47,973 nt of DNA. It comes from Limisphaerales bacterium. Its GTDB lineage: Bacteria; Verrucomicrobiota; Verrucomicrobiia; Limisphaerales; UBA11358. The stretch lies in contig JANOBC010000059.1 of assembly GCA_031411455.1 (NCBI GenBank), forward strand, positions 1 through 47,973. The letters are read 5' to 3'. Each line of letters opens with the position of its first letter. The stretch's first letter is position 1. A program made the position numbers and the translations under genes. Below the pieces are notes generated by a model. That model saw nothing but the letters and a program-made list of their open reading frames with translations. It did no database searches and was not told the origin of the DNA. This document shows, piece after piece, positions 17,095 to 43,736 of this stretch.

Positions 17095-20000
17095 TTACTG
17101 CGCCAACTTTTTCCAAACGCGCAACGCCTCCGTCGCCCCCCACGCCTGCGCGTCGCAGCCGCGTTGCGTGTGCGGCGCGTCGCCATCGAGAATTTCCGGC
17201 AATTGGCCGAGACAGCCTTCATTAAGAATTTTCTCCGCGCTGCCCAGATAACTTTTCGCCGCCGCAACCGCTTCCGGTGAAAAATCCCACGCCGCTGCGA
17301 GCGCCTCGCAGAACGTCGGAAACGTCCACGTCCACGCGGTGCCGTTGTGATAGGCGGGCTTGCGACGCGTGTCCTCATCGCCTTCGTAGCGCGGCCAATA
17401 CGGATTCGGCGGATCATTTAATTGGCGTCCGTCGTTGCCGTAAATCGTGAGCGGCACGGACACCGGCAACGGCGCAAGTGAGCGCAGCGCACCCGGCACG
17501 ACGAGGAATTTTTCCGCCGCCGCCACGCAACGCTTCGCCCGCTCATCCTTAACGAGGCCGAGGCTGATGGCGAACAGGCAATTGCTCCGCAACGCAGCGT
17601 CACCCACGGCCGCGCGGGCACTGACGCCCGGCTTGGCGAGCAACACATCGGCGAACCAACCTTGGTCTTCGCACCAGAAGTATTTTTCAAATGAGGCGGT
17701 TGCCCGGTCGGCAAGGTCGCGCCATTTGTTTTGATCGGCCGGCGCAGAAACTTTTTCAAGCTGCCGCAGCAGGCGAATCCAAAGTACTTGAATCTCGACG
17801 GGATAGCCTTCGCGCGGCGTGCCAGCGGGATAATTCGTATCCATCCAAGTGAAGTGACTCGGACTCCAGATGAGCGCGGAGTCGGCGTCCATGCGGATGC
17901 CGTTCGGTGTGCCGTGCGAATAATTTTCCGCGATGCTCCTCAGCACATCGACGATGGTGCGGCCATGGGCGTCAACGGGCGCGTGGTAAAAATTTTGAAT
18001 TTTTAATTTTGAATTTTTAATTTTAGAAAATTCTTCGCACACGACGGCGAACCACAGCGGCGCATCGGTCGTGTCGCGATTGGAAACGTCGTTGCCGTGA
18101 ATCGTGTTAGGCAGCGTGCCGTCCTTTTCAAACTTGGCGAACGTGAGCAAAATCTGTTTCACCTCGTCATTCAAACCCGCAGCGAGCAAGCCGCGCGCAC
18201 AGATGAGCGAGTCGCGGCCCCAATCGAGAAACCACGGATAACCGGCGATGACCGTCTTTCGTTCGTCGCGGCGGACGACAAATTGTTTCGCGGCACATTC
18301 AAGTTGTGAGGCGAAATCCGGCTGGGCGTTTCCGCTTTCCGCTTTCCGCTTTCCACTTTTGACTTCTTCCATTTCCGCCGTGAGGATCAGTGCAACGCTT
18401 TCACCTTTTGTCAGCGGCAGTTCAAACCAGCCGGGGCTGTAAGCATCGCCGCTGCCGGTTTGCCCGCGTGTCTGCTCGACGGGATGCGGGATGTTCTCGC
18501 ACCATTCCGGCTGCGCGTGGTATTCGCCGCTGTCGGCAAAGACCAGGAGTTGACGGTCGTTGGCGGGCGTAAATTCAAATCCGACGCAATTTTGAATTTT
18601 TAATTTTGAATTTTTAATTTCCCGGCAGTTCGACGCGAAATGGAAATCCGCGCCATCATTGCGCTTGGTTTCGCTGTGAAAATTCCGGTCCTCGATGTCC
18701 ACGCGCACCGTCAGGCGCACGTCGGCATCGGCGGGCAATTGTTTTCCTTGCGCCAGCTTTTCCGTCGGGCGGCTGAATTGAAAGACGACGGTGTTTTCAT
18801 CCGCCAACATTTCCGCGCGCAATTCAATTTCCACCGTGCGCCCGTCACCGGCGTTCGCCACAAAGTTCCAGATGGCGGGCGGGCCAGCTTGAAACGACCC
18901 AAGGCTTTTGAAATCCAGCGCAGAGAGAAACCCGTCGGCATTCACCCAGACGCGCAGGCGCTTCACCAAAACGTGGCGATCCACCGGCACGGTCGGGTGC
19001 AGGTTCGCGCCGAGGACGCAGTCGTATTTGGAATTCACGCGGCCCAGATCAACGCACAACCGCGCCATGCCGCCACGATGATTGGTGAGCAAAACCAAGG
19101 TTGAAGGTTGAAGGTTGAAAGTTGAAGGTTCTGCGGGTTCGGGCGCGAGGAAACGAATAGTTGCCGAAACTTTTTGCGAAGTTGTGGCGTGGCGTTCCAA
19201 AATTAAATCAGCATCAACCGCAGATGAACTCACCGGCAAGATGCCTGTGTCACTACCGCGCGGCGCAAAAAATGCGACGTGAACATTTCCAGTGGGAATG
19301 GATTGGACGTGGGTGCGCGTGTTTTCATTCCGCACTCCGCACTCCGCACTTCGCGCTTCCAAAGATGCGCGGAACGGCGCGCTGTCTTCAATCAACAGCC
19401 AGTGACCCGGCGGAATCATCGTGACGCGGCGCGAGTCGAGCAAAGTCCAGATGACGACACGCGGGAAAACTTCTCCGGCATCCGCCTCGACCAGCAGTTC
19501 AGCCAGCGGCGTTTTGCCATCCCGCGCGGCGAATTCGCTGGCGGTGACAAGGAAGTTTTTTGGCGAACGCGCGACTTGTTCCGCAAGCCAGCGCCAGTCC
19601 AGTCCGTCCACGGCCTCGATGGGAATGATTTTATTTAGTGCTGACAGGGCAAACGCAGCCTGCGCGCGGGCGTGGCGATAATTATCGCCGCTCAAACCAA
19701 CGGGCTTCTCCGTGGACGCGAGACAGAAGGCTGCGCCGGGTGGAAGCGTGAAAGTGATTTTATTTTTGACCGTGGAAATGTTCGGCAGCGGCTGGCCGAG
19801 CAGCTCGAATTCAAAAGCGGAAAGCCCGTCCTCCGTAGCACTGCGGAGGGTGGACGGAAGGCGGAAAGCGGAAACGTCGAGCGCGAGATTGTTTTTTTTC
19901 TCAACGTCCGTGTTGACCAAAACCAAAACCGAATCTTTTCCTTCCGCCGATTCGCGGAGCAACGCATAAACCGGCGAGTCGGGCGCGCTCAAGCGCGTGA

Positions 20001-37064: not shown

Positions 37065-38312
37065 TCAATCCCCCACCCCGTTCTCCCGGCAGATCCTTGA
37101 GTAAACTCCCGCCAGCGGCTTCAATGAGCGCGGCAGTTTTTCATCCGCGAAATCCACCGCCAGCAAACCAAACTTTTTCGTGTAGCCGAATTGCCACTCG
37201 AAATTATCCATCAGCGACCAGTAGAAAAATCCGCGCACGTCCACGCCCGACTGGATGGCGCGATGCAACGCCGCGAGATTTTCCCGCAGGTCGCGCTCGC
37301 GAAAATTTTCATCCGCCGAGGCCGAGCCGTGTTCCGTGATGTAGATGGGCAGGCGGAATTTCCGGTGGAGATATGGTAGGATTTTTTCCAGACCTTCCGG
37401 GTAACGCTCCACCATGTCGTCGCAGATGAAGCCAAAATCCTTCAGCGTTTTCACCGGCGTGCCGCTCGCGGGAATCATCGCGCGGAAATGATGGAAGCGC
37501 ACGCGTCCGTAATAATTCAGCCCGATGAACGTCGAAGCGTCCCGCCGCGCGCCGCCGAGAAACGCATCCAGCACGAACTTGTTGAACGTGTAGTGACACG
37601 CGAACGCCGTCGTGCGATCCCACAGCGAAAAATTTTTATACGCGTGGAAGAACGTCCAGTTCTTCGCGATGCCCACCTCGGGTTTGCGCCCGGCGTTGCC
37701 CTCGCGCTGGATCACGCGGCTGGCTTGCGCGTGGGCGCGGGCCATGTGCGCGATCACCTTGCGAAACTGGCCGAGCTGACCTTTGCGCTGCGGCGGAAAA
37801 CCCCCGAGCAGATACGCCACGCACGCGTAAGTGTCCGGCTCGTTGAACGTGTTCCACAGCCACACCCGCTCCTTCAGCACCGCGACCAGCTTGGTGACGT
37901 AATCCACGAAAGCCGGAATCGTCGCCGCGTTCGTCCAGCCGCCGGCGGCGTTGATCCACGGCGGATTGGAGAAATGATGCAGCACCACCATCGGCGTGAT
38001 GCCCTTGGCGATGAGCCGGTCGAGCAGGTCAACGTAGCGCGCCAGCTCGGTCGGGTTCAGCGGGGCGAAGGGCGCGGATTGCAGCCGGCCCCACTCGATG
38101 CCGAAGCGGTAGGCGTTCGTGCCCAGCCGCGCCATCCAGTCAATGTCCTCCGGGTAACGGTGATAATGATCGCAGGCCACGCGGCAATGGCTGCCATCCT
38201 GCGCGGTGAACGGCGTCCACTCATTTTCGATGTGGCCCTCCACCTGCGTCGGCGCCGTGGCCGTGCCCCAGAGAAAGCCGGGTGGAAATTTTAGAATGTT
38301 GCCGCCGCTCAT
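37065..38312 (-). CDS. GH1 family beta-glucosidase
   Basis: Acid/base motif WNTFNEP and nucleophile motif IYITEHG. N-terminal FPPGFLWGTATAPTQVEG. 415 aa. Confidence 0.9.
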   Translation of the reverse strand: MSGGNILKFPPGFLWGTATAPTQVEGHIENEWTPFTAQDGSHCRVACDHYHRYPEDIDWMARLGTNAYRFGIEWGRLQSAPFAPLNPTELARYVDLLDRLIAKGITPMVVLHHFSNPPWINAAGGWTNAATIPAFVDYVTKLVAVLKERVWLWNTFNEPDTYACVAYLLGGFPPQRKGQLGQFRKVIAHMARAHAQASRVIQREGNAGRKPEVGIAKNWTFFHAYKNFSLWDRTTAFACHYTFNKFVLDAFLGGARRDASTFIGLNYYGRVRFHHFRAMIPASGTPVKTLKDFGFICDDMVERYPEGLEKILPYLHRKFRLPIYITEHGSASADENFRERDLRENLAALHRAIQSGVDVRGFFYWSLMDNFEWQFGYTKKFGLLAVDFADEKLPRSLKPLAGVYSRICRENGVGD

Positions 38313-38325
38313 CCCGGAGATTTTC

Positions 38326-38437
38326 TCCTAACCGCGAACTCAATGGCAGCAAAAAACTCCGACACGTGTCGGACGCTCAGCCGGGTGATGGCCATCAATG
38401 GCAGAGCGGTGAGGCTGGCGAAGGCGACGGGTTAGGT
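38326..38437 (-). repeat. attC-like element A (between ORF A and GH1)
   Basis: On the minus strand, ACCTAAC (38437-38431) starts 7 nt after the ORF A stop. GTTAGGA (38332-38326) lies 13 nt before the GH1 ATG. The interior holds the palindrome ccgacacgtgtcgg, but no clear L''/L' pairing was found. Confidence 0.3.
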
Positions 38438-38444
38438 TGAACAA

Positions 38445-39020
38445 TCATTTGGTTTTGTGGTTTTTCCAAGGATCGTTGGAATCAAGAAAGCCGCAATAAG
38501 TTACACCAGACCCGTTTGTTTGCTTTGGATAGTCAGAAAAGTCTCCCCCAATTTCGATTCGCTTGATGATGTCCACGACATCTTCTGTCCGTGCAAGCTT
38601 AATGCCATAATACACATTCCGCTTCTTGCCGTCTTGACTGGTTGCTGCCTCAACGGCTGGCAATCGAAAGAACGTGAATGTCTCATCATAAAAGCCAATC
38701 GGCTGACCTTGCGTATCCAACTTCATTATGAACCACAACTCAAGAACTCCATCCCATTGTCCTGCTTTAAGATCGTAAATCACCGAAGGCAAAATCTGAT
38801 TGATCTGATTGCCGCTGTCGAATGTCGTGAATGTATAATTAATGATTGCGGATTTAGGCAAGCTGGCCAGAAAGGGTCTCTGTTGGATTAACCAGTTCTC
38901 GTAAGCCTGCTTTTTCTGAACAATGTTTTTTTCCGCATTAACCTGTTGGTGGCATCCAGTCAGCAAGAAGCAATTGAGGATCAACAATGCCAAATTGAAT
39001 TTTTGCATTCGCGTAGTCAT
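38445..39020 (-). CDS. orphan lipoprotein (cassette ORF A)
   Basis: Lipobox FLLTGC after MTTRMQKFNLALLILNC. ~45 % G+C. No family recognised. ATG at 39020 (or 39008); the track GTG at 39077 lies inside the GC-rich repeat. Confidence 0.5.
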   Translation of the reverse strand: MTTRMQKFNLALLILNCFLLTGCHQQVNAEKNIVQKKQAYENWLIQQRPFLASLPKSAIINYTFTTFDSGNQINQILPSVIYDLKAGQWDGVLELWFIMKLDTQGQPIGFYDETFTFFRLPAVEAATSQDGKKRNVYYGIKLARTEDVVDIIKRIEIGGDFSDYPKQTNGSGVTYCGFLDSNDPWKNHKTK

Positions 39021-39023
39021 TGA

Positions 39024-39116
39024 GTCTAACGTAAAAAGCTGACTCGTCGCGGCGGAGCGCAGCGAAGACGGAGCCACCGCCGATTCGCGGCGGGAACCGC
39101 GTCAACGGCCTGCCGC
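39024..39116 (-). repeat. attC-like element B (partial: R'/L' end present, no R'' core)
   Basis: The plus strand reads GTCTAAC GTAAAAA GCTGAC at 39024-39043. The 60 nt at 39042-39101 match 40576-40635 with 1 mismatch. It ends at the ORF B stop with no RYYYAAC. Confidence 0.35.
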
Positions 39117-40526
39117 TCACTTGATCGCACTTTTATCATTCTGCATTTCTCCAAAATATTCCCGCAAATAATCGGATCGAGGCCGGTTGACGACTGTGGC
39201 GAAAGCAACGAACGAAGTAAAATGCTTGAACTCCGCCTTGGCCGCGTCGGCAAGTTGTTGCTTCGTGACTCTTTTTTCCACCTTCGCCACTTCGTATGAC
39301 ACACGTTGGATCAATCCGCTTTCGGGAAATTGCTTGAGTGCCGCTTTGAGTTCGGTGTCGTTGCTGGTTAGCTGACCACTTTCTTTCTTTATCAGTAGCA
39401 CACCGGCTGCGAAACGCACATCGCCGGTGGCTTGCCAGCCTTCCCGTTCGAGCTTTAGCTGGTTCTCCGAATGCCCGGCGGGAGCTGCGAACAATGCCGC
39501 ATTCCACATCTCCTTGTCTTTACCTTTTCGAGCTTGCTCCAAAACCAAGGGAGCGATTTGTGAATGCAACACCGTTTCGTCAATCGCTTTTGCTTCTACG
39601 GCGGCATTCAAAATCAATGAAAGCAGCGCGCCGTTGGTAGGAATTGTCCGGGGGGCGTCTATGAGCAGACGGTATTTTGTTAGAATTTTTTTTATGCCGG
39701 CAGCGTCTTCTTCATCGGCAGTGGCACACTCCGCCGCGCATGAGATTGTCCGGTTACACATATCATCATCAGGCAATTTGAGCGCCGCTTTTACCGCCGG
39801 TAAATCGTGAGACAGATAGGATTTGTATGGCCCGCTGTTCCACCAATCTCTGGGAAAGTCGCAGTCGAGCGCAATCAGGTCGTAGGCAGCGTTCACATCT
39901 TGTTTTTGAATCGCTTTGGCGAGTAGTTTGGCGCGGCGTTGGTGTGGAGTCGGCTCACGATGCACTGAACAAATGAGTTCCTCCATCTGTTCCACGGAGC
40001 CATTAGGTGCCAGTTCTGATTTCCGCCACGCCTCCACGGCTTCGTTGATACGATTTAGACGAATCAAACAATCTGCCTGTAGTGCATAGGGGGCGGCATT
40101 GTCTGGTCTTGCCTTTGAGAACTTTTGATAAGATTCCAACGCCGGCAGATATTCTCCCGCCCGATGCTGTTCCAGCGCCCACTCCCAGACTACGGCGGGA
40201 TTTTCCGGTTCTGCCAAGGCGGCGGCGCGGTGGAGCGCATACGACCGGGTGCGATCCATTTCAAACAAAACATTTCCGAGTAAAAAGGATTGTGCCGGTG
40301 TTCGGGTTGATGCGGGAAAGGCGGCCAGAAGTTTTTCGTTTGCCCCATTCAAATCTCCCGACTTCATCTGCTCCTCACAGGCAGGCATGACGGTCTCCAG
40401 AGCATTGTTTGCCTGTTGAAAATCCGTCTTAAAAAAGGTCGGCGTCTTGATTTCTGTTTCCGCAAAGAGACACGCTTCCAAAAACAATATCGGTGCAACG
40501 AATAGCAGAAGTTTAATTTTTTTCAT
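39117..40526 (-). CDS. orphan secreted TPR-like helical-repeat protein (cassette ORF B)
   Basis: Signal peptide MKKIKLLLFVAPILFLEA. All-helical, with TPR-like stretches (YALHRAAALAEPENPAVVWEWALEQHRAGEYLPALESYQKFSKARPDNAAPYALQADCLIRLNRINEAVEAW). Lower G+C than the flanks. ATG at 40526. Confidence 0.55.
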   Translation of the reverse strand: MKKIKLLLFVAPILFLEACLFAETEIKTPTFFKTDFQQANNALETVMPACEEQMKSGDLNGANEKLLAAFPASTRTPAQSFLLGNVLFEMDRTRSYALHRAAALAEPENPAVVWEWALEQHRAGEYLPALESYQKFSKARPDNAAPYALQADCLIRLNRINEAVEAWRKSELAPNGSVEQMEELICSVHREPTPHQRRAKLLAKAIQKQDVNAAYDLIALDCDFPRDWWNSGPYKSYLSHDLPAVKAALKLPDDDMCNRTISCAAECATADEEDAAGIKKILTKYRLLIDAPRTIPTNGALLSLILNAAVEAKAIDETVLHSQIAPLVLEQARKGKDKEMWNAALFAAPAGHSENQLKLEREGWQATGDVRFAAGVLLIKKESGQLTSNDTELKAALKQFPESGLIQRVSYEVAKVEKRVTKQQLADAAKAEFKHFTSFVAFATVVNRPRSDYLREYFGEMQNDKSAIK

Positions 40527-40557
40527 TTTGGTTTGTTGTTTTTCCTCTGGCCCTGAC

Positions 40558-40722
40558 ACCTAACACGGAAAGTTAACTCGTCGCGGCGGAGCGCAGCGAA
40601 GACGGAGCCACCGCCGACTCGCGGCGGGAACCGCGCCATCTGCCTCCGCTCCGACCCAGGCTGCGCCGAGGCGAGCGCTGCGGCAAGACGAGACGGCGGC
40701 TGGCTCCGGCAATAGGTTAGGC
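40558..40722 (-). repeat. attC-like element C (165 nt)
   Basis: On the minus strand, GCCTAAC (40722-40716) starts 14 nt after the ORF C stop. GTTAGGT (40564-40558) lies 31 nt before the ORF B ATG. Internal pairings are ctcgtc/gacgag and gcagcg/cgctgc, but large asymmetric loops sit next to the cores. Confidence 0.4.
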
Positions 40723-40736
40723 AGCGTCATAAAATC

Positions 40737-40970
40737 TCATCTGTTTCCGAGCAACCAATAAGAAACCCAAACCCAAAACATCCTCGCTGCAACAAAACAC
40801 ACAGGCAATGAAAAAGCGAACGGCAGCGCCGCCGAAATCTTCAATGCTTTCGAGTTCCACTTGCGCCCGAAATAAAAAATGCAAAGTGAAACCACAGCGC
40901 AAACAAACAACATCACAAGCGCGCCAAATATCGCGAAGAAATACTCTGGCTCTGGCGGATTTGTCTGCAT
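40737..40970 (-). CDS. orphan small membrane protein, 77 aa (cassette ORF C)
   Basis: MQTNPPEPEYFFAIFGALVMLFVCAVVSLCIFYF... has two to three hydrophobic helices. ATG at 40970 sits 12 nt downstream of GTTAGGT. The track start at 41129 runs through the GC-rich repeat. Confidence 0.4.
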   Translation of the reverse strand: MQTNPPEPEYFFAIFGALVMLFVCAVVSLCIFYFGRKWNSKALKISAALPFAFSLPVCFVAARMFWVWVSYWLLGNR

Positions 40971-40982
40971 GGCGTCCAAGCT

Positions 40983-41107
40983 ACCTAACGTGGAAAGCTG
41001 AACCGCCGACGTTCGGCGGCCGATGCGGCGGCGGTTGATGGGTTCAATCCGTTCACTGGCGGCGACCATAAATCCGGGCCGCCGGGTTGTCCAGCCGCGA
41101 GTTGGTG
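40983..41107 (-). repeat. attC-like element D (125 nt, best canonical geometry)
   Basis: The minus strand reads CACCAAC-tcgcg-GCTGGAC ...85 nt... GTTCAGC-tttccac-GTTAGGT. L''/L' pair at 7 of 7 positions with one G-T wobble. R''/R' pair if one A is bulged. The spacers are 5 and 7 nt. The 96 nt at 41010-41105 match 41693-41788 with 5 mismatches. Confidence 0.5.
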
Positions 41108-41177
41108 GTGGTAGGGACGGACTGGTCATTAATGGCGGCGCGGCGCGGATGGCTTCGGTGATGGATAGGTCGATAAA

Positions 41178-41657
41178 TCATGGCTTCCATGTTATGATTC
41201 TATATCGCAATTCAAAACTATCCGGGGGCATATTCGTCGAGCGATCATTCTGCTTAAGGCCATGAAGAAATGTCCACGTCGCATCCGTCGTCTCGGTGTA
41301 ATCTGGTCGCAGCCATGCCGTCCAATCTGCGAGCCCTGGGTGATGTGAAATAGCCAGGAGAAAAACCTGGGCAGGCTGGCCATCAGTCGTAACAACCATA
41401 GCACGTCTACGTTGGCCATCATGGATGAGAGTCGAACTGGAAAATATGACAAAACCTCCCTCCTCTCGCTTCTTGGTCAATTTTAGCCGTGTGCCAACAA
41501 TGTCTGTATCCGTAACAACATCAAAGCTAGTCAAAGGCTCATACTTGGCAGTCTTTGGGACGCGCAACTCGTAAAGAAACTCGTAATGCTTGCCGATGGA
41601 TACGCACGAAAGCGCCAATGTAGCCGCAAGAGTTAAAATCAAGGGATTGAATTTCAT
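41178..41657 (-). CDS. orphan lipoprotein (cassette ORF D)
   Basis: MKFNPLILTLAATLALSC lipobox. 159 aa, lower G+C. ATG at 41657 sits 11 nt downstream of GTTAGGC. Confidence 0.5.
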   Translation of the reverse strand: MKFNPLILTLAATLALSCVSIGKHYEFLYELRVPKTAKYEPLTSFDVVTDTDIVGTRLKLTKKREEGGFVIFSSSTLIHDGQRRRAMVVTTDGQPAQVFLLAISHHPGLADWTAWLRPDYTETTDATWTFLHGLKQNDRSTNMPPDSFELRYRIITWKP

Positions 41658-41668
41658 GCAGCAAATTC

Positions 41669-41808
41669 GCCTAACGTAGCCAGCCAATCCCCCGTTCGGC
41701 GGCCGATGCGGAGGCGGTTGCTGGGTTCAATCCGTTCACTGGCGGCGACCATAAATCCGGGCAGCCGGGTTGTCCAGCCGGGAGTTGGCCGCAGCGGGGA
41801 GGTTAGAC
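41669..41808 (-). repeat. attC-like element E (outermost)
   Basis: On the minus strand, GTCTAAC lies at 41808-41802, followed by a second core-like GGCCAAC-tcccg-GCTGGAC identical in layout to element D. GTTAGGC (41675-41669) lies 11 nt before the ORF D ATG. The L' side diverges from element D. Confidence 0.35.
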
Positions 41809-41875
41809 AGGATTAACCGGATTTTACAGGATTCAAAAAAACCCCAATCCTGTGAATCTTGTTAATCCTGTCTAA
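41803..41875. repeat. nested perfect hairpin (REP-like) downstream of the glycosyltransferase gene
   Basis: Outer arms ttagacaggattaac (41803-41817) and gttaatcctgtctaa (41861-41875) pair perfectly over 15 bp. Inner arms acaggatt (41826-41833) and aatcctgt (41846-41853) also pair. No U-tract follows. Confidence 0.85.
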
Positions 41876-41890
41876 AGTCAGGCGCGGCCG

Positions 41891-42970
41891 TTATTTCCTG
41901 ACGGCAAGTTCGATGGCGGCGAAAAGTTTTTCCGGCGCGGCGTCCACCCAGTTGCGGAATTTCCCGGTGGGCAAACTGTCCGGCAGTTCGGCGAGGCGGT
42001 CGAGGTTGAAACTTTTTTCCGCGAGACCCAGGCCGAACTGCTCGGCATCGAGGGCGTTGACCTGCTGCTCGACGTGGTTCTCCACCGGCACGAGGAACAG
42101 CGGCTTGCCCAGCCACGCGGCTTCGCTGACGGATTCAAACCCGGCGGTGCAGACGACGTGGCGGCACTCGGCCATCATCTGCAAAAACTTTTCGCCATCG
42201 AGCCGGTGAAACGTGAGCGCGGGCGAGTGCTGAAACTCGGCGGGCGCGTCCGGCTTGTCGTAAAAACAATGCAGCTTGGTCTGCGGATTCTTCGCGCTCC
42301 ACGAAATGATTTGTTCCGCGTAGCCGTGGTTCAGCAGATAGACGAGGACAAAATCACCGTCGGGATTTGAGGTGAGCTGGAAAAGTTGTTTCCGCAAAAT
42401 CGGCGGGCCGACGATGATGCGTTTGCTTGGCAAATCAGGCGCTTCGTAGAGCGAGAGCGCCAGCTTGGTCGCGCGGGCGCCGAGGAGGCGCGTGTAAATT
42501 TTCATGCTCAACAACTGTTTCCACAGGTGCGATGCGCGGACGTAGCCGGGATGCTGAAACATGAACTGGTGCCCGATGGCGACGACGGGCGGACGTTTGC
42601 GCCGCGTGATGGCGTAGAATGCGGCCATCGGCTCGAAGAAATTGATGATCACATCCGGCTGCGTTTCGCGGACGATGTCGTCGAGCTGGCGGAGGATGGC
42701 GAAATATTTCGGAAGTTTTCCAAACACGCCGAGGAGCGTGGCGGTGTTGCTGACGGACTTGCTGTCCTTATATTTGAACTCCAGCGTGGGCAGTTGCCGG
42801 ACGGGAATCTTCATCGCCGATGCGAAGTATCCCGGCATCGGCCGTTGCGCGCTCGCGCCGAGCGTGACGGCGACGACCTGATGCCCCGCGGCCTCCGCCA
42901 TTTCCTTGACGGCCATTGCCTGGGTCATGTGACCCCGGCCCTCGCCCAGCACGCAGAACATCATTTTCAT
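41891..42970 (-). CDS. GT-B fold glycosyltransferase (GT28/MGDG-synthase-like)
   Basis: N-terminal glycine loop MMFCVLGEGRGHMTQAMAV. The C-terminal half has CTAGFESVSEAAWLGKPLFLVPVENHVEQQVNA, typical of MurG/UGT-like nucleotide-sugar binding. ATGs at 42970, 42964 and 42961; the track start at 43030 is less likely. Confidence 0.8.
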   Translation of the reverse strand: MKMMFCVLGEGRGHMTQAMAVKEMAEAAGHQVVAVTLGASAQRPMPGYFASAMKIPVRQLPTLEFKYKDSKSVSNTATLLGVFGKLPKYFAILRQLDDIVRETQPDVIINFFEPMAAFYAITRRKRPPVVAIGHQFMFQHPGYVRASHLWKQLLSMKIYTRLLGARATKLALSLYEAPDLPSKRIIVGPPILRKQLFQLTSNPDGDFVLVYLLNHGYAEQIISWSAKNPQTKLHCFYDKPDAPAEFQHSPALTFHRLDGEKFLQMMAECRHVVCTAGFESVSEAAWLGKPLFLVPVENHVEQQVNALDAEQFGLGLAEKSFNLDRLAELPDSLPTGKFRNWVDAAPEKLFAAIELAVRK

Positions 42971-43736
42971 GGAAGTGGATGAGTTTGATCTTGCCGTCGA
43001 AATCTTCCACCAAAGCCGTGCAGCTTTCAACCCAATCTCCGCAATTTAAATACTGCACGCCGTCAATCATCTTCATCTCCGCGCGGTGGATGTGGCCGCA
43101 GATGACGCCATCGGCCTGCTGGCTGCGCGCCATCGAAGCGAGCGTGCCCTCGTATTCGGTGACGAATTTCACGGCGGACTTGGCCTTGGATTTCAGAAAC
43201 GCCGCGAGCGACCAGTAACCAAAACCGAGCGCGCGCCGCACGCGGTTGAAATACAAATTGAAATCGAGAATCCAGTTGTAGAGGTGCGAGCCGAGTTTTT
43301 CCAGCAGGTGATTGAAGTGCGTCAAGCCGTCCGCCTGATGGCCGTGGATGACGAGATATTTTTTACCATCGGCGGCGGTGTGCATCACTTGCCGCGCAAT
43401 CGTCACGCTGCCGAAGCGCATCCCCATGAACTGCTCGATGAACTCGTCGTGGTTGCCGGAAATATAAATCACCTTCGTCTGCTTGCGGCTTTTGCGGAGA
43501 AGTTTTTGGATGAGCACATTGTAGTCATCGCGCCAATACCACCGGAACTTGAGTTCCCAGCCATCAATCAGATCGCCGACGATGTAGAGATACTTGCAGT
43601 CCACCACGCGGAGAAATTCCAGCAACTCCGACACGCGCGCGTGCTTGGTGCCGAGATGGATGTCGGAAATCCACACGGAGCGGCAGGAGAGCGTCTCGCC
43701 GGGGTTCAAGTCCAGATGGGGTTGGTCGGCATTCAT
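42768..43736 (-). CDS. LpxH-like calcineurin-type metallophosphoesterase (UDP-2,3-diacylglucosamine diphosphatase-like)
   Basis: Motifs WISDIHLG, IVGDLIDGW, ISGNHDEF, VIHGHQ and ICGHIH. The start is uncertain (ATG 43736 or track 43838). After ...KIKLIHFHEN the ORF continues as a Gly/Arg-rich tail that overlaps the glycosyltransferase start out of frame. Confidence 0.8.
   Translation of the reverse strand: MNADQPHLDLNPGETLSCRSVWISDIHLGTKHARVSELLEFLRVVDCKYLYIVGDLIDGWELKFRWYWRDDYNVLIQKLLRKSRKQTKVIYISGNHDEFIEQFMGMRFGSVTIARQVMHTAADGKKYLVIHGHQADGLTHFNHLLEKLGSHLYNWILDFNLYFNRVRRALGFGYWSLAAFLKSKAKSAVKFVTEYEGTLASMARSQQADGVICGHIHRAEMKMIDGVQYLNCGDWVESCTALVEDFDGKIKLIHFHENDVLRAGRGPGSHDPGNGRQGNGGGRGASGRRRHARRERATADAGILRIGDEDSRPATAHAGVQI

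Follow-up and report, generated by a model that had tools for sequence, protein, structure and literature searches.

A candidate integron-like gene-cassette array at a split glycosyltransferase-GH1 junction in Limisphaerales

The 47,973-nucleotide stretch analysed here (the window) is contig JANOBC010000059.1 of a Limisphaerales bacterium (GenBank assembly GCA_031411455.1), and at positions 38313-41890 it carries an island of foreign composition. The island lies between a gene for a family GH1 hydrolase (37065-38312, minus strand) and a gene for a GT-B-type glycosyltransferase (GT; 41891-43030, minus strand). Four co-oriented minus-strand open reading frames (ORFs D, C, B and A) are spaced by five GC-rich elements of 108-233 nt (elements E, D, C, B and A). 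As the likeliest single explanation we tentatively favour an integron-like cassette array whose boundary sites belong to a divergent class; it would resemble a cluster of attC sites lacking integron-integrase (CALIN; Cury et al. 2016, PMC4889954). This reading draws on the ORF-element architecture, on the turnover of genes between near-identical genomes, on homology that stops at a GTTAGRY core, and on end motifs shared with a second array.

The island ORFs are compositionally foreign. Their G+C content is 0.43-0.51, against 0.58-0.61 in the flanks. At third codon positions their G+C (GC3) is down to 0.49-0.54, whereas GH1, GT, ppk and pyk have 0.68-0.80. A comparable dip is seen nowhere else in the window. 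A first-pass annotation of this DNA had described both the drop in G+C between the two flanking genes and the four co-oriented ORFs between GC-rich elements, and both descriptions hold.

Gene content turns over at the GT-GH1 junction

The comparison of synteny gave the clearest result and the strongest new evidence. Eighty loci of Verrucomicrobia subdivision 3 (Limisphaerales), about 1.4 Mb of clade DNA, were fetched with the GH1 query. About 30 relatives have an ATGA in which the stop of GT and the start of GH1 overlap, which implies that the two genes are probably translationally coupled. Inserts at this junction were found in a few lineages only, namely the window and the loci L047, L032, L013 and L033. 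The closest relatives of the window are L047, from the metagenome-assembled genome (MAG) JBEEMY01, and L032, from MAG CAIWFB01, with 95-96% amino acid identity in GH1 and 82-88% identity at codon position 3. Their inserts measure 1.36 and 1.63 kb, respectively, and the three islands share only the 96-nt element beside GT and the last 70-140 nt before GH1; the ORFs between these shared ends are unrelated. ORFs A-D were absent from all 80 loci. The comparison with related genomes that the first-pass annotation had proposed thus showed different genes among the closest of them.

Two copies of the final ~45 nt of GT bracket the island. In the GT-proximal copy the working gene ends in KLFAAIELAVRK and a stop codon, and the second copy is a relic directly before GH1. 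The same bracket occurs in L047 and L032; therefore, the junction was opened once in a common ancestor, and its contents have turned over since. The heptamer GTTAGGA before GH1, which the first-pass annotation had taken for an R'-type core, lies inside the codons of the relic glycosyltransferase C-terminus (GCG GTT AGG). It is relic coding sequence and not an R' core.

Some further observations concern this junction. A metallophosphoesterase-like ORF overlaps the GT start on the upstream side, and the combination of GT-B glycosyltransferase and GH1 hydrolase genes in a single operon is conserved. The two sister islands start with a large palindromic repeat (CCCCTCGCCCCCTTGGGGGAGAGGG...CCCTCTCCCCCGAGGGGGCGAGG; L047:1590-1720 and L032:8410-8540). 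L047 also holds tandem-like repeats of ~21 nt of the type CCACATGGTGAAG, and L032 has several more palindromes; repeats have piled up in the part of the islands nearest to GT.

Boundary elements end in integron-like cores

The elements contain two pairs of repeats, one of 86 nt (88% identical) in elements B and C and one of 96 nt (96% identical) in elements D and E. No further copy of either was found in the window or, outside the orthologous island, in the 80 related loci. The search for copies that the first-pass annotation had outlined thus showed that the repeats are not generic repetitive extragenic palindromic (REP) sequences in the 48 kb and 1.4 Mb sampled.

On the minus strand a GTTRRRY-type heptamer precedes the ATG of each ORF and of GH1. 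These are GTTAGGC (41675-41669), GTTAGGT (40989-40983), GTTAGGT (40564-40558), GTTAGAC (39030-39024) and GTTAGGA (38332-38326), at distances of 11, 12, 31, 15 and 13 nt, respectively. The first-pass annotation had the five positions right, and its spacing of 3-31 nt is corrected to 11-31 nt. It had also recorded two left-hand cores, GCCTAAC (40722-40716), 14 nt past a stop, and ACCTAAC (38437-38431), 7 nt past a stop; it had missed GTCTAAC (41808-41802), an R''-type core in element E, and the degenerate ACCTATC (41170-41164), 7 nt past the ORF D stop. GTTAGRY occurs nine times in the window, seven of them within the 3.6-kb island, and the expectation from shuffling is 5.8 for the whole 48 kb. 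The island cores alternate as R''...R'-ORF, the order expected of attC sites. R'' and R' are complementary at six of seven positions in element C (GCCTAAC/GTTAGGT) and in element E (GTCTAAC/GTTAGGC). The pair ACCTAAC/GTTAGGA of element A is complementary in sequence, but its R' is the relic of GT codons.

Elements B, C and D have in common the start-proximal module RTYMRNC-7 nt-GTTAGRY, which agrees with a shared motif seen in the first pass. The form CTTTYYRYGTTAG has three occurrences in the 1.4 Mb sampled from the clade, each of them within this island. A generic promoter or ribosome-binding-site motif was considered and rejected: ACGTTAGRC occurs only three times in the 80 related loci, and CTTTYYRYGTTAG in the island only. 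Since RTYMRNC-7 nt-GTTAGRY is confined to the island in this clade DNA, it is not a general promoter or ribosome-binding motif.

In every comparison of paralogues and orthologues, homology stops at GTTAGRY. Between element E and its counterpart in L047 it ends right after GTTAGRC, and the same limit is seen between elements B and C and between the right end of element D and those of B and C. Element D is chimeric: it joins the 96-nt core to a right end of the B/C type, and the join lies upstream of the core. The right-hand motif of element E is common to the repeat of another locus, L048, described below, and the left-hand motif of element C is shared with L048 and L067.

The first half of element E contains a palindrome with 21-nt arms (41803-41875). 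It is near-perfect, has a 31-nt loop (TTAGACAGGATTAAC...GTTAATCCTGTCTAA) and stands directly after the GT stop. A 29-nt piece of it is found again in L065 at 96% identity. The palindrome probably either belongs to a distinct hairpin repeat found throughout the clade or acts as a bidirectional terminator.

A second array shares the end motifs

Complementary RYYTAAC...GTTARRY pairs occur eight times in 1.42 Mb of clade DNA. Two of the eight lie in this 3.6-kb island, and another led to L048 (DATHQS010000124.1), a Limisphaerales-like contig (GH1 85%, ppk 84% identity). At L048:3960-5945, four small low-GC ORFs (112, 101, 123 and 75 aa) lie directly upstream of ppk and are co-oriented with it. Each is followed by a repeat of ~147 nt; the four repeats are 85-90% identical in alignment and match their own profile with nhmmer E-values of 1e-25 to 1e-48, a circular comparison. 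A fifth, truncated repeat closes the array. The repeats start with GCCTAACC(A/G)(G/A)TCGCCGG and end with CGCGGGATTG(CTAC/GGTC)GTTAGGC. Two of the ORFs obtain their stop codon from within the left core of the repeat, and the next ATG stands 12-17 nt past the right-hand core. The repeat folds into a 7-bp R box, a 4-nt bulge, five further base pairs and several internal hairpins, and is no stabler than shuffles.

The left motif CCT[AG]ACCNNT[CT]GCC has eight matches in 2.8 Mb of strand, five in L048, two in elements A and C, and one unrelated. The right motif YACGTTAGRY has six, five of which are in the window, L047 or L048, and an exact 16-mer is common to element C and L048 repeat 1. At L067, GCCTAAC-AATTC-GCCGGAGCC stands 7 nt past a low-GC ORF and GTTAAGC stands 10 nt before the next ORF. 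Among the window, L048 and L067 the ends are conserved and the interiors are not, and the different arrays have no cargo in common. The cassette-array layout is real, and a second locus in the clade repeats it.

Comparison with known attC sites

Several results weigh against the integron-like reading. As controls, attC sites were extracted from the class 1 arrays of ten plasmids. A geometry descriptor, R''-5 nt-L''(3+bulge+4)...L'-5/6 nt-R', accepted all 8 known attCs, in which 6-7 of the 7 L-box positions pair at 5/1/5-6 geometry; its background is high, at 268 hits per Mb of strand, so that passing it is necessary but not sufficient. No island element passed this descriptor of L boxes, unpaired central spacer (UCS) and extrahelical base, the best relaxed L scores being 4.5-5 of 7, at spacings outside that geometry. 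Eight class 1 attCs, a narrow training set, were used to build R1, a surrogate covariance model of attC. R1 scored 14 plasmid-array attCs at 19-78 bits, including the held-out aac(6')-29b, blaVIM-2, dfrA27 and an intron-associated site, and missed one plasmid-array site, that of a NUDIX cassette. Nothing was found by R1 at E<=10 in the whole window, L032 and L047, or in 1.3 Mb of relatives. With the filters off, the best island score was 9.2 bits (E 0.46), on both strands of the simple palindrome 41811-41867, and the best L048 repeat scored 8.2 bits, from the R box alone. The covariance check that the first-pass annotation had proposed therefore came out negative with this surrogate, no element exceeding 9.2 bits against 19-78 for known attCs. 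An integron array or CALIN is called from at least two attC sites within 4 kb by an attC covariance model, and the surrogate R1 detected no such group.

The folds and the cores depart as well. In DNA folds, elements A and C are closed by CCTAACC/GGTTAGG R-box pairing, and their interiors are multi-branched, with no L boxes or extrahelical base; elements B and D fold without a closing pair, and in the minimum-energy fold of element E the two cores are not paired together. The elements are multi-branched and no more stable than shuffles (z -0.7 to -1.9), and do not form a single long imperfect hairpin. The usual length of attC is 57-141 nt, which element spans of 165 and 188 nt exceed. Element B has no R'' core, as had been noted in the first pass, and element D departs too, with a degenerate R'' (ACCTATC); the earlier description of D as the only element of textbook geometry is wrong, and A and C are the ones closed by an R-box pairing. 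The ~45-nt duplication of the GT 3' end brackets the island, and recombination at G|TT would not make one; it also places the last supposed R' core inside relic coding sequence.

No integrase was found by tblastn with IntI1 in the 48-kb window, which is the whole contig, in agreement with the first pass, or in L048; in the 11 kb of L048 the ORFs beside the array are not recombinases. A complete integron, with intI and attI beside the array, was found neither in the window nor in L048. The nhmmer profile of the L048 repeats gave no whole-element match in the window, and L048 similarity continues ~10 nt beyond GTTAGGC. The 96-nt and 86-nt cores had 0 matches in metagenome and viral collections. 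Because the canonical attC features (L boxes, unpaired spacer, extrahelical base, single hairpin and covariance-model hit) were not found, the island is not filed as a member of the integron family.

The sole tyrosine-recombinase-like match in all fetched clade DNA is at L036:16738-17160. Over 178 aa it is 35% identical to IntI1, and GH1 lies ~6 kb away, in a genome without the GT neighbour. This recombinase is unrelated. No Rfam family matched the elements, the best E-value being 0.12, for the palindrome. A structured RNA common to the 86- and 96-nt families was also rejected, as neither strand gave support for it: the covariation term was positive and many pairs were broken.

Promoter-like interior of the 96-nt repeat

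Both 96-nt copies carry a sigma70-like TGGACA-17 nt-TATGGT on the coding strand, and the hexamers match at 9 of 12 positions. The window has two copies of the repeat, and L047 and L032 have one each. All four agree in both hexamers and in the 36 nt that follow, and they differ mostly within the 17-nt spacer, against a background of 82-88% identity at codon position 3. This pattern fits that expected of a working promoter, which is predicted here. A promoter-like interior is compatible with a cassette-borne promoter, and it also feeds an explanation by expression signals only, considered below. An upstream ORF in the repeat (MVAASERIEP...) was rejected: the differences between copies, checked by eye, are all non-synonymous, and its frame relation to the downstream ORF is inconsistent.

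Possible origins of the island

Under the integron-like reading, the island would be a chromosomal array of horizontally acquired single-gene cassettes of integron type, without an integrase alongside, in the formerly coupled GT-GH1 junction. Its unit would be TTAGRY - 11-31 nt - ORF - boundary element, with a boundary element that starts 7-14 nt past the stop with RYCTAACC (left site RCCTAAC-N5-GCCGG) and ends in ...YAC-GTTAGRY. We infer that site-specific recombination at the right-hand core, at its GTT, adds, removes and exchanges units, and the catalyst may be a tyrosine recombinase encoded elsewhere in the genome. The sites would be a clade-specific, non-canonical attC class in which the ends are conserved and an interior of 110-190 nt is free and multi-branched, and the interior of the 96-nt family may have been co-opted as a promoter. 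The array would be partly decayed, with the left site of B lost, that of D mutated and the right end of A fused to the GT relic. A bolder proposal, which we regard with considerable doubt, is that Limisphaerales (Verrucomicrobia subdivision 3) possess a distinct cassette system. Its single-gene cassettes would have new sites of 110-190 nt that keep only an integron-like R box, and they would be mobilised by a divergent IntI able to accept this geometry or by another tyrosine recombinase, possibly a housekeeping one of the Xer kind. Its left site would be RCCTAAC-N5-GCCGG and its right site GATTG-(4-8 nt)-GTTAGGY or RTYMRNC-7 nt-GTTAGRY, with a free, branched interior that sometimes holds a promoter, and its cassettes would enter the junctions of housekeeping operons far from any integrase.

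It is conceivable, and in our estimate rather unlikely, that no dedicated recombinase was involved. The elements would then be clade-specific repeats like REPs, bacterial interspersed mosaic elements (BIMEs) or miniature inverted-repeat transposable elements (MITEs), genes would accrete through RecA-dependent or illegitimate recombination over 90-150 nt, and AAC...GTT would mark the family termini. The identities of 88-96% over 86-96 nt, and of 85-90% over ~147 nt in L048, are ample for homologous recombination, and the chimeric element D, with its junction upstream of the core, is readily accommodated. The failure of the canonical attC tests and the presence of other palindromic, REP-like repeats in the L047 and L032 islands favour the same explanation, and the GT 3' duplication points to events that are not site-specific. 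The REP consensus is GTAG with a palindrome, and the bottom-strand ends of the elements, RCCTAAC-GTAG followed by a GC-rich hairpin, recall it. However, in the window and 1.4 Mb of relatives the end motifs were found only beside low-GC ORFs in arrays and not in ordinary intergenic regions, all copies are in direct orientation, and in four comparisons the homology breaks off precisely at GTTAGRY and not at scattered points. What is conserved among the window, L048 and L067 is the ends and not the interiors, which suits protein-binding sites better than homology tracts. MITEs have terminal inverted repeats and a target-site duplication around each copy. The elements have inverted AAC...GTT cores at their termini; no duplicated flank around individual elements was seen on reading the sequences, with no dedicated search for target-site duplications made.

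Expression signals might account for the elements, an explanation that we consider unlikely: the 96-nt repeat would be a portable sigma70 promoter and leader, and the 86-nt repeat and hairpins terminators or mRNA stabilisers, duplicated locally to restore expression, with the cores incidental. The insertion split an ATGA-coupled pair, so new signals were needed, and TGGACA-17-TATGGT on the coding strand of both 96-nt copies would supply one. Its hexamers and 36 nt are invariant in four copies from three genomes at a neutral identity of 82-88%, a terminator-like hairpin with a T-run stands ahead of GH1, and GTTAGGAG, before GH1 and before an L032 ORF, holds an AGGAG Shine-Dalgarno sequence. Yet the 86-nt family and the L048 repeats lack a promoter-like site, the two families have no conserved RNA structure in common and no Rfam match, and ACGTTAGRC, found only three times in 80 loci, is no general start-proximal signal in the clade. 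RCCTAACC directly past stops and the differing gene content of near-identical genomes are also left unexplained. An eroded integrative element is very unlikely as the source of the whole island. It would have entered the GT 3' end by attP x attB recombination through an integrase, as tRNA-targeting islands do, bringing a replacement GT 3' end, and the repeats and ORFs would be its remnant. The island does lie between two diverged direct copies of the last ~45 nt of GT (KLFAAIELAVRK and FFAAIEFAVRRKSPG, each with its stop), and the same bracket in L047 and L032 implies one ancestral event. Against this, the window has no integrase, the island has no excisionase, replication or phage genes, and the periodic ORF-repeat structure, the differing content in three relatives and the bracket-free L048 array are unexplained; such an event may account for the first opening of the site, but not for the array.

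Relation to known systems and significance

Integrons and CALINs have already been recorded in Verrucomicrobia (PMC4889954; PMC8618304). Like a CALIN or a sedentary chromosomal integron, the island consists of co-oriented short ORFs of unknown function and atypical composition, one per unit and each followed by its site. The repeats start with RYYYAAC just past or overlapping the stop and end with GTTRRRY 11-31 nt before the ATG; repeats within an array are similar (85-90% in L048), content varies between strains and relatives, no integrase lies alongside, and L048 has the same design. Unlike the sites of a CALIN, the island elements have no UCS, L''-L' box or extrahelical base, their interiors are multi-branched and their spans are 112-188 nt, they are at chance level on the class 1-trained covariance model, and one lacks R'', one has a degenerate R'' and one has an R' that is relic coding sequence. 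The integron organisation proposed in the first pass therefore stands in its ORF-RYYYAAC...GTTRRRY-ORF layout and fails in the UCS, the paired L boxes, the extrahelical base and the R1 score (<=9.2 bits).

REPs and BIMEs, which are associated with REP-associated tyrosine transposases (RAYTs), resemble the elements in being GC-rich, extragenic, clade-specific repeats right past stops between co-oriented genes, with a GTAG-like tetranucleotide beside a GC-rich hairpin on one strand. Unlike them, the elements occur in arrays beside low-GC genes only, in direct orientation, as much longer units of which only the ends are conserved; no dispersed copies were found in the window (48 kb of this genome) or the 80 related loci. 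The pdif modules of Acinetobacter plasmids are genes flanked by XerC/D-type sites in alternating orientation with a dif consensus. The island is similar in its gene-sized modules, in the inverted ~7-bp arms around a ~7-bp spacer (here RTYMRNC-7 nt-GTTAGRY) and in the lack of a recombinase gene inside, and it differs in that its sites are direct repeats within ~150-nt elements that do not resemble dif. In Bacteroidales, rAID-1 systems are recombinase-associated arrays of acquired immunity genes that adjoin a tyrosine recombinase gene. They likewise combine small, diverse genes, often for secreted or membrane proteins, with conserved intergenic repeats and strain variability, whereas the island has no toxin or immunity homology and the window no tyrosine recombinase.

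If the repeats are functional recombination sites, surveys based on attC models (IntegronFinder) may miss a class of arrays in the abundant Verrucomicrobia of soil and freshwater, and both the mobile pool of 'ORFan' genes and the site range of cassette recombinases would be larger than assumed. The locus offers a natural experiment, in which an ATGA-coupled pair is split by different cargo in near-identical genomes, and gain and loss of single genes can be traced in metagenomic time series. If the repeats prove ordinary, the island is a small accessory-gene islet of local interest only.

Genes of the island and their relatives

ORFs A, B and D are real genes, with database homologues (5, 67 and 10, respectively, at 29-70% identity). 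Besides itself, ORF A has its five homologues at 51-70% identity; those of ORF B are from Verrucomicrobiota and Planctomycetota, and those of ORF D, at 52-65% identity, are all metagenomic. The gene call of ORF C is less secure. Two long same-strand frames overlap in its region (40717-40971, minus strand), the second open across the whole stretch, and an alternative-frame query over this region returned the database proteins P0085 and P0086 (83% and 78% identical). Both match the Cys/Arg-rich alternative frame and not the membrane-protein frame, which means only that homologous DNA exists elsewhere, where gene callers picked the other open frame.

No Pfam, NCBIfam, PADLOC or PHROG family was found in the cargo beyond weak tetratricopeptide repeat (TPR) matches in ORF B, and family and fold searches gave no toxin or immunity homology among the island ORFs. 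AlphaFold2 models of the cargo (predicted local distance difference test, pLDDT, 65-68) had no PDB fold match at E<0.05; that of ORF D is a beta-sandwich (pLDDT 65), with no significant match in a PDB search. An exact look-up of the window proteins gave no record on other contigs. Positions of the island features are collected in Table 1.

Table 1. Features of the island and its borders (window coordinates)
Feature	Position	Strand	Description
GT functional 3' end	41891..41938	-	...APEKLFAAIELAVRK, then stop; one copy of the duplicated ~45-nt segment bracketing the island
Element E	41658..41890	-	GT stop to ORF D start; copies at the same place in L047 and L032
Element E, attC-like span	41808-41669	-	140 nt: GTCTAACC ... 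GGGGGATTGGCTGGCTAC-GTTAGGC
96-nt repeat, copy 1	41693..41788	-	In element E; sigma70-like site 41776-41748
ORF D	41178..41657	-	159 aa; lipoprotein-like signal (LALSC); GC3 0.49
Element D	40971..41177	-	Degenerate left end GACCTATCCATCACCGA (core 41170-41164); right end GGTTCAGC-TTTCCAC-GTTAGGT (to 40983)
96-nt repeat, copy 2	41010-41105	-	In element D; promoter-like site 41093-41065
ORF C	40737..40970	-	77 aa; predicted two-helix membrane protein; GC3 0.54
Element C	40527..40736	-	attC-like span 40722-40558 (165 nt); ends GCCTAAC-CTATT-GCCGGAGCC ... GAGTTAAC-TTTCCGT-GTTAGGT
86-nt repeat, copy 2	40560-40645	-	In element C
ORF B	39117..40526	-	469 aa; signal peptide; weak TPR matches; GC3 0.53
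Element B	39009..39116	-	Shortened relative of element C; no left-hand core
Element B, right end	39044-39024	-	GAGTCAGC-TTTTTAC-GTTAGAC
86-nt repeat, copy 1	39026-39111	-	In element B
ORF A	38445..39008	-	187 aa; lipoprotein (LLTGC); GC 0.43; GC3 0.51
Element A	38313..38444	-	Left end ACCTAACCCGTCGCC (from 38437), homologous to the L048 repeat start
Hairpin and T-run	38373-38358	-	Like an intrinsic terminator; in element A
Relic GT 3' end	38309..38356	-	FFAAIEFAVRRKSPG, then stop; TGA still overlaps the GH1 ATG, as in relatives

Families A and D are rare, and the loci that they occupy in other genomes differ, two being series of small ORFs in one orientation. Homologues of ORF A were met downstream of an aminotransferase gene, downstream of priA, within a series of small co-oriented ORFs with strong hairpins between them (L099), and in L101, and an R''-like heptamer stands 6-7 nt past the stop in all five contexts. 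A homologue of ORF D in L098 is one of four small ORFs in a row, and after this homologue comes a 58-nt site in which attC-like left and right halves were recognised by eye (L098:1249-1306). This site is a lead and not evidence, since R1 is at chance and the left motif alone is common; the weak R1 scores of L098 and L099 (9.8-13.6 bits) were rejected as chance level for the sequence searched. Two homologues of ORF B that were inspected have ordinary, unrelated contexts without the cores.

Other observations

At the contig end upstream of its run of small ORFs, L098 has about three tandem copies of a ~42-nt unit (GCAAAACGGAGCAAACGCAGTCGTTGCGGACTCGTCGCAGT; L098:1-130). The ORF D homologue P0008 has as neighbours a transposase gene of the IS110 family and a gene that encodes an Mtd_N domain (L085:471-3308); Mtd_N is a target-protein domain of diversity-generating retroelements. 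Ten of the fetched contigs (L004, L008, L009, L027, L029, L048, L052, L053, L064 and L069) have 65-85% identical GH1 and conserved Limisphaerales synteny under labels that include Bifidobacteriaceae, Acidiferrales, Dongiaceae, Limnocylindrales and Sulfopaludibacter, and are likely mis-binned or mis-labelled MAG contigs. Elsewhere in the window, which is otherwise 58% G+C, AT-rich tandem units of 14 nt (AATTTTGAATTTTT) occur at 17977-18037, 18588-18634 and 19097-19129.

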